A stretch of DNA of 64,000 nucleotides from an uncultured Armatimonadetes bacterium (GTDB taxonomy: Bacteria > Armatimonadota > UBA5829 > DTJY01), in contig OY970325.1 in assembly GCA_963717145.1 (NCBI GenBank), positions 1,376,001 to 1,440,000 on the forward strand. Reading direction: 5' to 3'. Positions 30,001 to 33,000 of the stretch are shown piece after piece. Position 1 is the first letter of the stretch. Each line of letters opens with the position of its first letter. Made by a program: the position numbers.

Positions 30001-33000
30001 CACCTCGATCCTCGATAAACGATCGAAGCGCGAGGTCCTCCCTCAGGGTGAGAAGGCCAACAAGCTCCAGCTCTTCGAGGACAAGCCCATATCGTGGGAT
30101 GCGTGGGACATCGAGTTCTACTACCGCGACAAGGGCCGCGACCTCACCGACGTGCCCGTAGGGGAGGCCTTCAACGGCCTCCCATCCTCCGGGGGGATCG
30201 ATGCTCGCGCGTCCGGGAGGCCGTTGAAGGCCTCCCCTACGGAGATCAAGGTCGAGGACGCCGGGCCGGTGCGCGGCTCGCTCAAGATCAGGCGCAAGTT
30301 CGGCTCGTCCGAGATCGAGCAGCGGATCGTCCTCTGGGCGGCAAGCCCGCGCATCGACTTCGAGACCCGCGTCGATTGGCACGAGACGAAGAAGATGCTC
30401 AAGGTGGCGTTCCCCGTAGACGTGCATGCGAGCCATGCGCGATTCGACATCCAGTTCGGAAGCGTCGACCGCCCGACCCACTGGAACACGAGTTGGGACT
30501 TCGCGCGGCTGGAGGTCGCCGCCCAGAAATGGGTCGATATGTCGCAGGCCGACCATGGCGTCAGCCTCCTGAACGACTGCAAGTACGGCCACGACGTGCA
30601 CGAGAACGTCATGCGCCTGACGCTCCTCCGCTCGCCGAAGGAGCCCGACCCGACCGCGGACATGGGCGAGCACTTCTTCACCTACTCCCTGCTCCCCCAC
30701 GAGGGCGACTGGCGCGACTCCGAGACCGTCCGCCGCGCCTACGAGCTGAACGTCCCGACCGTGGCCTGGCTTTCGGACGTAACCCCCCCCAGCCCCCCCG
30801 CAACGGAGGGGAGTGGAGAGGGATCCGGAGCGAGAGTGGGCGCGTCAGGGAGCAAAGGTCAGGCGTCGGCACGAGGTAAACTCCCCTCCGTTGCGGGGGG
30901 GCTGGGGGGGGTTACGGGCAACCGCCTCCTCAGCGTGGATGCGCCGAACGTGATCATCGAGACCGTGAAGAAGGCCGAGAAGGAGGACGCGCTCGTCGTG
31001 CGCATGTACGAGTGCGCGGGGATGGATGCCGCCTTCCGCCTCGAAGCGGGGTTCAAGGTCGCACACGCCGTCGAGTGCGATCTCCTGGAGCGCGACCTGG
31101 CAGCCCTGAAGCTCGAGGGGAACTGCCTCCCGCTCTCGATGAAGCCGTTCGAGATCAAGACAGTGAAGCTGAGAGCATAGGAGGGTAGCAGATGGGGATG
31201 AAGACTCATGATTCCCGCCTCGGCATCGCGTCCACGATCATCGCGGCGGTCGTGTCCCTTTGCATTGCCGGACTGATGGTGTTCGCGAGTCACTTCGCCG
31301 TAACGACAAGTGACCCGTCTTACGACCCTGAGCCCTATTTCCGGTTTCTGCACAGGATGCTCAACGGCATGTTCTTTCTTTCGGCCGTCGGGATAGGCGT
31401 GGGGATCGTCGGGCTGCTGCAGAAGGACACTGACCATACCTTCGCCCGAATCGGTGTTCTCGTGAATGTGTTACTCACCGGCACACTCTGGCCAACCGGT
31501 TCTAGCTGGCTCTACTAACAAGAATGCGGAATGGGCGGGGACACCATGCGTCCCCGCCCCATTTCGGATTTCGAGTTTCGATATTCGAGTTTTCCCTGGG
31601 CGGACTACGCCACAAGCGCGCCGCGCGCCGCAATCGTGCTCGGAGCGGACGACTGACCGGTGTCCTTCGCGTTGTTACCGCGATACTGCACCACGTAAGT
31701 GTAGTCCGACCCGTTGCCGGCAATCGTGTCCTCGTAGGGCGATGCCGTCTGATAGGCGACGAGCGAATAGCTCGTCTCCCCGGCCTTCTGCCGCCAGACG
31801 TTGCATCCCTTGACGCCCGCAGGCTTGCCGTTGATCTTCTCGTTCCCCGGCTCGGTGCCGAAATGCACCCACACAGTGCCCGGCTCGGTCTCCAGATAGA
31901 TCTTCGGCACATCCGGCGGCATCGCGCCCGCAGTGTGCATGGTGGTCGAGCGGACCGGCAGCCCGAGTTCGCCGCGAAGCGCGTCGGTCATGCCCGGCGC
32001 ATGCTGGACACGCTGCACGAGCGGACGAATCGCCTCTCCCGCCGCGACCTTCTTGGCCTTCTTGTCATTCATCGCCGAGTTGAACGCCGTGCGCTTGTCG
32101 CCGAGATTCGTGAAGCTCCCGTTGTAAGCGGTGTACGCAGTCTGCAGCGGCAGGATATCTGCCGGGTCGAGCCCGAGTTCCACCAAATGGGTATCCAGAC
32201 CCGAGACGAGATTGTACATCCACGATGCAAGTTCCGCATCGTTCGAAGGTAAGTAATCCGACATATCAATGTCCTCCTGAAATGAGATTTCGCCCCTGCA
32301 CGCAGAGCATTTCCACGCCAGGTCCGAGCCCGGTTACACCCGGTGTAAGCCCTCCTACACCCGGTGCAAGGCTTCCTACACCCGGTGTAAGGCTGCCTAC
32401 ACCCGGTGTAGGACGAGTTACACCGGGTGTAGGAAAAGCTACACGCGGTGCAAGCCCGGCTACACCCGATGCAGGACGAGCTACACCCGGTGCAAGGCCC
32501 CTGAGTTCAGGCTCAGGCGCGGATCATGCGGTTGCGAGGACAGCAGTTGTGGCCGGGTCTGAGGTCGAACTTCCTGAGAGACACCGGGAAACTGCCCACC
32601 GAGGGCTCGCCACCCGATCGCCCGCCACTCCACCATCCGCAATCTGAGTTGTGCAAGGTACGACCTACACTATTATTGTAGGCACGAGGCACGGATTTCT
32701 TCAGGTATTTGTTGCAGGTATTTTCGGTTTACACCGCGAGCGTAATGCGCTATAGTATGACCGGTTGAGAAGTCTCCGACCGGTAGACCAGCGGCTCTCC
32801 GACCGACGAGGGCTGAAAGGTGCGCGCCATGACTGAGTCAGACAACTTCGATTTCCGGTCCATCCGCCTCATCGATGACCAGCCGATCGATGAACTGGAG
32901 CGAGATCACCTCGGGCTGATGCCGTGGGCCAAGATGATCGCGGGGACGGCGGTCGGAACGCAGGGGCCGTTCACCATCGGCGTGCACGCGAAGTGGGGAC

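Follow-up and report, generated by a model that had tools for sequence, protein, structure and literature searches.

The window analysed here is a 64,000-nt stretch of contig OY970325.1 that starts at contig position 1,376,001. All coordinates are positions within it, except that "m" followed by a number gives the contig position of a family gene. The genome under study (5.37 Mb, a single contig) carries on the minus strand of this window a gene for a 219-residue protein (member A), together with an upstream tandem repeat array. Two further paralogs of the same family, members B and C, lie within the 64 kb. The features discussed below are as follows.

15143..15805, minus strand: family member B, 220 aa, TTG start (family HMM E 4.9e-67; alignment)
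15889..16052, no strand: array of member B, period 21 with 3.5 copies adjoining period 41 with 2.6 copies, own units (TRF)
31533..31560, minus strand: G+C-rich hairpin of the GGGGCGGGG...CCCCGCCC type, presumed terminator, downstream of member A (read from sequence)
31569..31592, no strand: short heptamer-type repeat directly behind the stop codon of member A, period 7, 3.4 copies (TRF)
31605..32264, minus strand: family member A, 219 aa (ORF; family HMM E 1.6e-75)
32273..32278, minus strand: Shine-Dalgarno AGGAGG of member A, 8 nt before the ATG (read from sequence)
32335..32496, no strand: array of member A, period 21, 7.7 copies, 78% matches (TRF and sequence)
32675..32703, minus strand: promoter-like motif of member A, predicted (family PWM 21.9 bits)
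60734..61417, minus strand: family member C, 227 aa from the corrected start (family HMM, alignment)
61616..61644, minus strand: promoter-like motif of member C, between array and gene (PWM 23.4 bits)
61714..61982, no strand: array of member C, about 9 copies of period 22, with 44 and 66 as further periods; the promoter-like motif lies between it and the gene (TRF)

The first-pass annotation had proposed a family of 25 paralogs without a named domain family, and both points held. A search with an HMM made from these genes recovered exactly 25 ORFs in the genome (E 1.5e-88 to 2.5e-65), and the protein had no match to a named family in Pfam, NCBIfam, PHROGs or PADLOC. The listed gene starts stood in part: 11 of the 25 were over-extended, as in member C, whose start had been placed at 61459. 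In the alignment of the 25 members the conserved start reads M-x-x-D-Y-(L/I)-P, and in most of them a GGAGG-type Shine-Dalgarno precedes the corrected start. The family, of about 220 residues, spans one bacterial phylum, the Armatimonadota. A search of the main full text of published articles returned no description of the family or of its coupling to arrays.

Among the four nearest genes of each member we found no recurrent family and no recurrent transposase-like neighbour. Plasmid and phage collections gave no match, and nothing pointed to a partner NTPase or a replication function. Downstream, heptamer arrays lay within 100 nt of the stop codon in 14 of 25 members, compared with 185 of 4518 other genes. 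Genome-wide there were 31 hairpins of the GGGGCGGGG...CCCCGCCC type, of which 25 lay no more than 150 nt past a gene end; the terminator scan did not call that of member A because it has no T-run.

Coupling of the family to arrays of two-turn period

The member A array ends 70 nt upstream of the ATG. In 24 of the 25 members the 700 nt upstream of the gene held an array with a period of 21-24, 41-44, 63 or 85, m3015059 being the only one in this genome without. By distance, the array lay within 300 nt in 22 of 25 members, and limits of 500-700 nt raised this to 24, while 89, 116 and 129 of 4518 other genes (2.0-2.9%) had such an array at increasing distance limits. This background rate applies to the genome under study and uses crude gene calls (4543 genes, 4518 outside the family). 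The results agreed with the earlier control rate of 2.0%. The reported persistence of the coupling in relatives, weaker across the phylum, was likewise recovered: in four genomes of related genera 18 of 20 family loci had an array, and distant loci of the phylum had one in 12 of 25 and 8 of 20 cases (roughly 40-50%). Arrays were thus absent from one member here, from two of 20 near loci and from about half of the distant loci. The linkage of the family to a tandem array of two-turn spacing is real.

Periods were assigned in 57 loci with a unit, using a filter that admitted only the classes named here: 29 loci had period 21, 17 had period 42, one had 63, one had 84, and the rest had 22-24 or 41-44. 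Near family starts, TRF gave no competing period of 12 or more apart from heptamer-derived rows. Genome-wide, TRF returned 111 rows at period 21 compared with 10 at 20, 15 at 22 and 1-3 at 31-32. The period of the family arrays is two helical turns or a multiple, in agreement with the 21-22 bp or multiples first ascribed to them. Copy numbers reached up to 18.

The genome is rich in short tandem repeats. About ten similar arrays preceded unrelated genes, close to the dozen or so noted earlier, and the genes beside other dyad-type arrays were heterogeneous (YcxB-like, GH99-like, beta-helix, ABC permease, MFS, GHL10, radical SAM, PMT_2 and esterase). A tblastn search for decayed family genes beside these orphan arrays found none. 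GC skew, as an indicator of the replication strand, was weak and lopsided.

A promoter-like motif and two array positions

Upstream of member A, the predicted motif consists of a -35-like TGAAGA (32703-32698), a 17-nt spacer and a -10-like TACAAT (32680-32675); the -10 element of member C ends 198 nt before the start. The family motif is roughly ccc-T-A/G-n-A-G-A, 14 nt, gcc-GATAAT, with high PWM information at cc-GATAAT. A motif of at least 16 bits was found before 15 of 25 members and 13 of 4518 other genes, with a PWM that had been seeded with 8 of the 15 scoring members.

Judged by the consensus in PMC12784957, the family motif carries the -10 element GCCGATAA of sigma-28 (FliA/WhiG) promoters. 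It also has a -35-like T-A/G-n-A-G-A, at a gap of 15 nt to GCCGATAA, where the canonical -35 element, TAAAG, stands at 14 nt. The same paper gives the Pseudomonas aeruginosa fliC sigma-28 promoter as -10 GCCGATAA and -35 TCTAAAG (PMC12784957). The family motif resembles the fliC promoter in its -10 element, and the genome encodes matching sigma factors; it differs in a spacer one base longer, and the flagellin loci of this genome lack the exact motif.

Two FliA/WhiG-family sigma factors in the genome scored above the NCBIfam TIGR02479 cut-off. In another genome (G006) one sigma match scored above this cut-off and there was no flagellin match. Neither of the two flagellin loci of the genome under study had an exact version of the family motif, and flagellin was present in 33 of 46 family-bearing genomes compared with 219 of 355 others, leaving 13 of 46 without a flagellin match. 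A flagellar link was therefore supported neither by flagellin co-occurrence nor by the flagellin loci. The family shares a promoter-like motif with a sigma-28/WhiG-like -10 element, which by its sequence may serve as the promoter. Between the member A array and the ATG, one scan of the minus strand for a sigma-70-type match returned none and a second returned only a weak one.

The position of the array relative to the motif followed the subfamily. In the AARG/AAGG subfamily, which includes member A, the array lay downstream of the motif, and in the ATIAA subfamily it lay upstream, 70-140 bp before the -35 element. Among loci with a motif score of at least 14-16 bits, the leader order was seen in 16 of 16 cases (6 members of this genome and 10 relatives) and the upstream order in 9 of 9. 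If the predicted motif is used, the member A array would span roughly positions +172 to +333 in a 5' leader some 400 nt long.

Such a leader position, repeated in the members and relatives just counted, would be expected if the array acted as RNA, forming a row of small hairpins that binds a regulator (perhaps the gene's own product) or controls mRNA stability or translation. The member A array itself folded better on the sense strand (-75.3 compared with -61.5 kcal/mol). Over all arrays, however, the sense strand folded better in 28 and the antisense strand in 20, which is not significant. Dyad arms held 38 G.T pairs and 29 A.C pairs, and compensatory double changes numbered 3 where 2.5 were expected by chance. 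Rfam returned chance-level rows and nothing above gathering scores. We thus found neither strand-specific pairing with covariation nor a known RNA family that would mark a structured leader. The lack of strand bias and of compensatory changes favours a role at the level of DNA over RNA hairpins, the arrays of the ATIAA subfamily lie upstream of the -35 element, and multiples of 21.3 bp match the helical phasing of DNA and not of RNA. A DNA-level role fits better, and we consider an RNA element very improbable.

Privacy, symmetry and turnover of the repeat units

Unit sequences were common only to three pairs of members with at least 93% protein identity. In all pairs at 50-71% protein identity the units were unrelated, including a syntenic ortholog pair. 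The units had almost no further copies in the genome, and the member A array gave one stray 13-mer match elsewhere. The arrays are locus-specific, as first described, but not every unit is strictly private: those of m460094, m524337 and m2876927 have copies at loci outside the family. Array units matched their own gene, whether as identical or as complementary sequence, no better than they matched other members. A metagenome scan with a 19-base stretch of the member A array gave 0 matches. A two-core pattern matched at least 107 metagenome loci; none of the 107 among the matches listed encodes a family member, and the scan is uninformative on the family. The low-G+C loci among these listed matches had no credible ORFs and look like unrelated minisatellites, and some of the high-G+C loci sit inside long ORFs.

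Copies of the member A array share a near-palindromic 13-bp core (6+1+6 bases) and have a variable linker. Across 57 units a perfect dyad arm of at least 5 bases was present in 29 and of at least 6 in 20 (mean arm 4.86, compared with 3.73 in shuffles). Arms ranged over 2-9 bases and spacers over 0-9, and about half of the units had no dyad beyond chance, so that the earlier statement that units often have a dyad core was fair without being universal. In 8 of 19 arrays the mismatches were distributed non-uniformly along the unit, the arms often being conserved and the linker variable; the array of member A showed such non-uniformity (p = 3.7e-4). Overall the arms were only slightly better conserved, with 9.2% mismatch at arm positions and 11.3% elsewhere.

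Dyad-symmetric sites spaced in this way are known from ARG boxes, in which 18-bp boxes separated by 3 bp give a centre-to-centre distance of 21 bp; they are bound by hexameric ArgR, usually number two, and follow one consensus across the regulon. The family arrays resemble them in placing dyad-symmetric sites every two turns, where one oligomer could lie on one face of the DNA. They differ in having up to 18 copies, a sequence own to each locus and many units without a dyad.

The varied dyad geometries resemble the sites of different transcription-factor families, and similar arrays stand before unrelated genes. Each array might be an operator for a conventional transcription factor of its own, with the gene for this factor elsewhere in the genome. 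Some 25 separate regulators would then be required, each tracking a fast-changing array at a family-specific position, with units that have almost no further genome copies to mark a regulon, and the family-wide coupling would be left without a reason. We regard it as most unlikely.

Within-array identity was 80-95%, which together with the complete turnover between orthologs implies continuing homogenisation. Copy number differed in all three close pairs (42-bp units, 4.9 and 4.1 copies; 21-bp units, 7.4 and 7.7; 8.8 and 9.7). These observations are in keeping with arrays that have no dedicated binder and matter only through their length and phase. Slippage or unequal exchange of 21-bp units would then shift the promoter-proximal distance or the leader length with helical phase kept, giving each paralog a heritable and mutable level of expression. 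It is consistent with this that the paralogs of a multigene family are each provided with an array, in a genome rich in short tandem repeats.

The known parallel is the contingency locus, exemplified by the GAA tracts upstream of Mycoplasma vlhA genes or the 7-bp repeats upstream of Haemophilus hmw genes, where units of 1-7 bp are identical across paralogs and the products are surface proteins. The family is alike in having a repeat tract 5' of each paralog and, in the three close pairs compared, copy numbers that differ. It is unlike them in its units, which are private and measure 21-24 bp or multiples, and in its products, which by inspection of the family alignment have no N-terminal export signal and so are not obvious variable surface antigens. 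In addition, a 21-bp unit is much less prone to slippage than the short units (1-7 bp) of known contingency loci, and the non-uniform conservation in 8 of 19 arrays is unexpected if the sequence is irrelevant. Tuning by array length and phase alone is in our view unlikely.

A whole cassette of about 1.1 kb was present in genome G001 and absent at the syntenic site of the genome under study. The arrays could be neutral or near-neutral minisatellites on a portable cassette. Tandem repeats on both flanks, 21-mers before the gene and heptamers behind it, would then arise from whatever process duplicates, inserts or deletes the cassettes, or from a local mutational bias at the cassette ends. Both flanks are indeed enriched in repeats, as the heptamer counts after the stop codon indicate, array sequence is not conserved between orthologs, and orphan arrays occur elsewhere. 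Against this, array position is kept within each subfamily across genera, in every leader and upstream case scored above. The periods are 21-22 bp and even multiples, with almost none of one or three turns, for which selection or a ruler is needed. A portable cassette would also sit uneasily with the lack of plasmid or phage matches and of a recurrent transposase-like neighbour. A neutral origin is distinctly unlikely.

Protein architecture and the proposed array-bound cassettes

In member A a long-helix domain at the N-terminus (residues ~1-105) is joined by a linker to a C-terminal domain of FN3 fold, and the chain ends in ...ARGALVA; its AF2 model had a mean pLDDT of 84.6. The FN3 beta-sandwich of the C-domain was supported by 237 Foldseek matches in the PDB at E <= 0.001, the top ones being FN3 domains (E 1.5e-5 to 1e-4, probability 1.00), while the Pfam fn3 model itself did not match the protein. 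The N-domain model gave no DNA-binding fold: Foldseek (E > 1) and VIA (Z <= 6.5) returned generic helical matches only, and a PDB profile search with this domain reached E >= 0.23. Neither a winged helix nor a ribbon-helix-helix was detected in the protein with family libraries and fold searches. Taken as a whole, the protein is close to neutral (median pI 6.3), with residues 1-60 acidic and segment 61-105 basic (median charge +4).

The homodimer prediction for member A scored 0.68, compared with 0.22 for the best control. Of 30 proteins whose structures are pairs of one chain, 20 attained that mark, as did 1 of 23 whose structures are single chains. Agreement between runs was at least 80% of contacts, and partner pLDDT was at least 82. 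In the predicted dimer, which is two-fold symmetric, the long helices pack antiparallel around residue 61. The model supports, and does not show, that copies of member A bind one another as a homodimer.

Two known systems place direct repeats beside the gene of their binder. In theta plasmids, iterons spaced by about 22 bp occur in 3-10 copies next to rep, are private to each replicon, and are bound by the product of the neighbouring gene, with which they co-evolve. The family is similar in having two-turn direct repeats next to the gene of a presumed binder. It differs in that the arrays are chromosomal, the family has 25 copies per genome, no Rep-type winged helix or family was detected, and there is no plasmid match and nothing suggesting replication. 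In ParR/omega-type centromeres (20-bp repeats in pSK41 parC, 11-bp repeats in R1 parC) each system has its own unit, and a cooperative dimeric binder autoregulates. The likeness here lies in tandem repeats directly upstream with a unit own to each system, and the differences in the missing partner NTPase, conserved neighbour and detectable ribbon-helix-helix, and in arrays that also lie inside a presumed leader.

We favour, at a probability of about one in three, the reading that the arrays are phased protein-binding sites that control each cassette and are possibly bound by the gene's own product. We regard each member as a self-contained cassette of shared promoter-like motif, private array, strong Shine-Dalgarno, gene, and a presumed terminator made up of heptamer repeat and hairpin. 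The array would act as double-stranded DNA that presents several sites two turns apart on one helix face, and the cooperative binding of a sequence-specific oligomeric protein to them would determine how the adjacent gene is transcribed. An upstream array, as in the ATIAA subfamily, would serve as an operator or upstream activating site, and a leader array, as in the AARG/AAGG subfamily with member A, would serve as a roadblock. The binder would, conjecturally, be the gene's own dimeric product, giving autoregulation. An Ala-Ala C-terminus would make this product short-lived, and as copy number drifts the set point would move with it. The analysis shows the coupling and its period, the privacy and turnover of the units, the make-up of the cassettes and the lack of RNA signatures; that a protein binds, which protein this is, where the promoter lies and in which direction control acts are inferred. 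Private units, the lack of a conserved neighbour and a linkage that outlives unit turnover together make the dimeric product the most economical candidate for the binder. The coupling, the period, the sequence constraint seen in some arrays, the predicted dimer and the basic segment 61-105 also speak for this reading. Against it stand the lack of a recognisable DNA-binding fold, the near-neutral protein with its acidic residues 1-60, the small margin by which arms are better conserved, the similar arrays before unrelated genes, the three recurring units and the loci without an array. With units unrelated at 50-71% identity, self-binding would need very fast co-evolution, and from a single DNA-binding scaffold one would not expect dyad arms and spacers so heterogeneous, with about half of the units lacking a dyad beyond chance.

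A bolder form of the proposal is that the helical and FN3 proteins are new sequence-specific DNA-binding dimers. The antiparallel long-helix core would be the two-turn ruler, and the genome would hold 25 orthogonal pairs of protein and DNA address, co-evolving so fast that orthologs of about 70% identity use unrelated sites. We find this doubtful.

Should each array be bound by the product of its own gene, the family would form a large natural set of orthogonal protein/DNA-site pairs on an undescribed fold, useful for studying the evolution of binding specificity and as a source of parts for synthetic biology. Otherwise there is still a phylum-wide rule without precedent in the literature searched, by which a two-turn repeat is kept beside copies of a family gene while the repeat sequence turns over completely.

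The C-terminus is usually Ala-Ala across the family. Together with the shared promoter-like motif, this suggests, as far as sequence can indicate, that the family is co-regulated and short-lived. One distant member carries a Lys/Ala-rich tail in place of the FN3 domain.

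Gene family and its coupling to tandem arrays

A search of the genome (one contig of 5.37 Mb) with an HMM trained on the 25 listed genes recovered precisely those ORFs and no others, confirming the family size of the first-pass annotation. Its description of the family as an orphan was also borne out, with no match to any Pfam, NCBIfam, PHROGs or PADLOC model, and our full-text literature search found no description of the family or of its coupling to arrays. The listed start codons required correction. The alignment showed a conserved start, M-x-x-D-Y-(L/I)-P, with a GGAGG-type Shine-Dalgarno sequence in front, and 11 of the 25 starts were therefore judged over-extended. 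Two subfamilies were distinguished by their C-termini (...ATIAA versus ...AARGxLAA or ...AAGG), and they also differed in the linker and the FN3 domain. A phmmer search against 1.84 billion cluster representatives returned 795 proteins at E ≤0.001 (142 at ≤1e-10), almost all of about 215-225 aa; named sources were mostly short metagenome contigs, with one record labelled as a Fimbriimonadaceae MAG. The gene family was present in 6 of 41 genomes of the same taxonomic family and in 46 of 401 across the phylum. The window contains three members:

15143-15805, minus strand: member B, with its own array
31605-32264, minus strand: member A, ORF of 219 codons with ATG start
8 nt 5' of the member A ATG, minus strand: Shine-Dalgarno AGGAGG, read from the sequence
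32335-32496: tandem array 70 nt upstream of member A (TRF; period 21, 7.7 copies, 78% matches)
60734-61417, minus strand: member C, with its own array

For 24 of the 25 members, TRF placed an array of period 21-24, 41-44, 63 or 85 in the 700 nt preceding the start, compared with 129 of 4518 other genes (116 within 500 nt and 89 within 300 nt), a background measured in this genome only, from a rough gene prediction that gave 4543 genes at 87% coverage. The reported coupling thus held. Such periods occurred in 83 mostly intergenic arrays, 23 of which adjoined family starts; the remaining 60 were largely heptamer triplets or copies of a REP-like repeat of 41-44 bp, with about 10 of comparable type in front of unrelated genes. 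In related genera, arrays stood at 18 of 20 loci (20 of 22 matches from genomes G001, G005, G006 and G010, omitting one partial match and one near a contig end). Phylum-wide, 30 loci minus 5 duplicates of loci already included gave 25 new loci, of which 12 had an array no more than 300 nt away with a period of 21-23 or 42, and in 5 of these it had at least three copies. Further, more divergent loci had arrays in 8 of 20 cases, one with 18 copies. The coupling in relatives was therefore upheld, as was its weakening far off.

A promoter-like motif and the position of the arrays

A scan for -35/-10 pairs showed a recurring pattern, ccc-T-A/G-n-A-G-A followed by a 17-nt spacer ending in gcc and then GATAAT. 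Fifteen instances, 8 in this genome and 7 in relatives, were used to seed a matrix, which scored at least 16 bits upstream of 15 of the 25 members (7 not seeds) and of 13 of 4518 other genes, which included fliG, two pilin-like genes, an HD-GYP-type gene, an ExbB/MotA-family gene and unrelated enzymes. The sigma-28 consensus GCCGATAA in PMC12784957 is identical to the -10 part; the -35 part resembles that of the P. aeruginosa fliC promoter given there (TCTAAAG), but the family spacer is one base longer. Two sigma factors of the FliA/WhiG family score above the curated cut-off in this genome, and assignment of the motif to sigma-28/FliA-WhiG is a prediction. The flagellar link is weak: the exact motif was absent from the flagellin loci of this genome, flagellin occurred in 33 of the 46 genomes with the family versus 219 of 355 others, and G006, with five members and a FliA/WhiG sigma factor, gave no flagellin match.

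The array position relative to the motif depends on the subfamily. In the AARG/AAGG subfamily the array lay 3' of the motif in 6/6 members of this genome (≥16 bits) and in 10/10 relatives of at least 14 bits with a clear order; one locus, L005, had extra arrays on either side. ATIAA members carried the main array ahead of the -35 element, at a distance of 70-140 bp, in 8/8 cases in this genome and in L018, a locus of another genome. Upstream of member A we found:

32703-32675, minus strand: predicted promoter-like motif, 21.9 bits

If this motif were used, the window array would fall inside a leader of about 400 nt, at about +172 to +333. On the minus strand, no sigma-70-type site was found between the array and the ATG.

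Nothing found supports a selected RNA structure. Folding was better for sense than antisense in 28 of 48 arrays (not significant), dyad arms held 38 G.T and 29 A.C pairs, compensatory double changes were at chance level (3 versus 2.5 expected), and Rfam returned chance-level rows only. A role of the arrays as RNA leaders is improbable.

Array units and their possible binding partner

Among 57 loci with a unit the period was 21 (29 loci), 42 (17), 63 (1) or 84 (1), the rest being 22-24 or 41-44; the filter admitted only classes 21-24, 41-44 and longer multiples, and no other long period competes near starts. Genome-wide TRF rows numbered 111 for period 21, 10 for 20, 15 for 22 and 1-3 for 31-32. 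These counts put the unit at two helical turns rather than one or three. Copies of the window array had in common a near-palindromic core of about 13 bp, separated by 6-8 freely variable bp, and mismatches were distributed non-uniformly along the unit (p 3.7e-4). The frequent dyad core reported earlier was confirmed as an enrichment above expectation, yet not in all units.

The claim that each locus has its own unit held for most arrays, whose recurrent 13-mers were confined to a single locus; it failed for members m460094, m524337 and m2876927 (named by contig start), whose units recur, and for a recent duplicate pair. Orphan arrays with these three units stood at non-family loci (contig 546300-547000, 1805100-1805700 and 4716000-4716400), with units of two members side by side near 546 kb and no family pseudogene near any of the three. 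Common units were restricted to three pairs at 93-96% protein identity, and all pairs at 50-71% had unrelated units. The syntenic pair m1065068 and L018 had unrelated units, yet similar promoter and terminator sequences. Copy number differed in 3/3 close pairs. Arrays that tune independently of their sequence are an unlikely alternative. On neither strand did any array match its own gene more closely than it matched other members.

Taken together, the period, the privacy of units, their retention through complete sequence turnover and the missing RNA signatures suggest that the arrays may be phased protein-binding sites on DNA. Against this reading, the searches revealed no known DNA-binding fold, dyads vary in their geometry, orthologs that are 70% identical have unrelated units, and unrelated genes also carry similar arrays. 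Weighing both sides, we therefore give DNA-level binding arrays a probability of roughly one in three. The larger part of that share falls to binding by the gene's own product, the only locus-specific protein in sight and a predicted symmetric dimer. A separate reading, in which unrelated regulators act in trans, is improbable.

The AF2 model of the window protein (mean pLDDT 84.6) places two helices at residues 9-25 and 34-87 and a shorter one at 94-100; a flexible linker then leads to a sandwich of eight strands, which matches FN3 domains. The N-domain folded alone at pLDDT 95.6, and its fold and profile searches gave generic helical hairpins only. A homodimer was predicted with a score of 0.68 (best control 0.22). 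Among proteins of solved structure, 20 of 30 homo-pairs and 1 of 23 single chains attained this mark. Agreement of contacts between runs was at least 80%, with pLDDT of at least 82. In the model the long helices would pack antiparallel about residue 61. From two textbook values only (about 81 Å for a 54-residue helix, about 71 Å for 21 bp of B-DNA), we infer that the long helix approximates the unit in length. Residues 1-60 are acidic (median charge -5) and 61-105 basic (+4), with the whole protein near neutral. The distant member L070 (G311:C3:53200-56500, ORF 1517-2557; part of the locus reads N) has the family N-domain (E 6e-9), joined not to FN3 but to a long, histone-H1-like tail rich in Lys and Ala. 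Ala-Ala ended 54 of 84 family proteins, and 21 of 25 members versus 127 of 4543 gene calls in this genome. At a C-terminus Ala-Ala is an ssrA-like ClpX recognition signal, and it may act as one here.

Cassette features and neighbouring sequences

Short repeats and a hairpin followed the stop codons of the window members:

15109-15151: heptamer tandem repeat directly after the stop of member B
31533-31560: G+C-rich hairpin after the stop of member A
31569-31592: heptamer-type repeat directly after the stop of member A
60707-60739: heptamer tandem repeat directly after the stop of member C

Of the 25 members, 14 had a heptamer array in the 100 nt following the stop, versus 185 of 4518 other genes (272 period-7 TRF rows genome-wide). 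At some loci direct and inverted heptamer runs combine into long hairpins. Hairpins of the type GGCGGGR...YCCCGCC occurred only 31 times in the whole genome. A G001 segment of about 1.1 kb with promoter motif, array, gene and heptamer hairpin was flanked by a 331-aa gene on one side and a convergent gene on the other. At the syntenic site of the genome under study the two flanking genes were 46 bp apart, without the cassette; gain and loss are both possible. No neighbour gene recurred among family loci, and no plasmid or phage record encoded a relative. That the arrays are passenger minisatellites of a portable cassette is less likely than sequence-independent tuning.

The divergent neighbour of member A (32820-34994, plus strand) is a KAP-family P-loop NTPase fused to leucine-rich repeats, with a sigma-70-type promoter match at 32728-32756. 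A 1148-aa ORF (27734-31180, plus strand) repeats the peptide ...VGEAFNGLP... three times in frame; the DNA that encodes this peptide appears to be the REP-like 41-44-bp repeat, which forms intergenic arrays elsewhere (e.g. contig 720513, 3484614 and 4525418). Small convergent ORFs lie 3' of members A (31192-31518, plus strand, 108 aa, apparently membrane-embedded by eye) and B (14673-15005, plus strand, 110 aa), with 49% identity over 37 residues. Among the matches listed, metagenome loci L083-L189 carried arrays of period 20-22 bp with core CACCGGGTGT and up to 32 copies, many in low-G+C contigs without credible ORFs; these are probably unrelated minisatellites. A hairpin-containing repeat (39 bp x 2.7) lies at window 56509-56616, and a similar one (43 bp x 3.7) at contig 3300287-3300444, about 200 nt upstream of one of the two FliA/WhiG-family sigma genes (3299321-3299992, minus strand).
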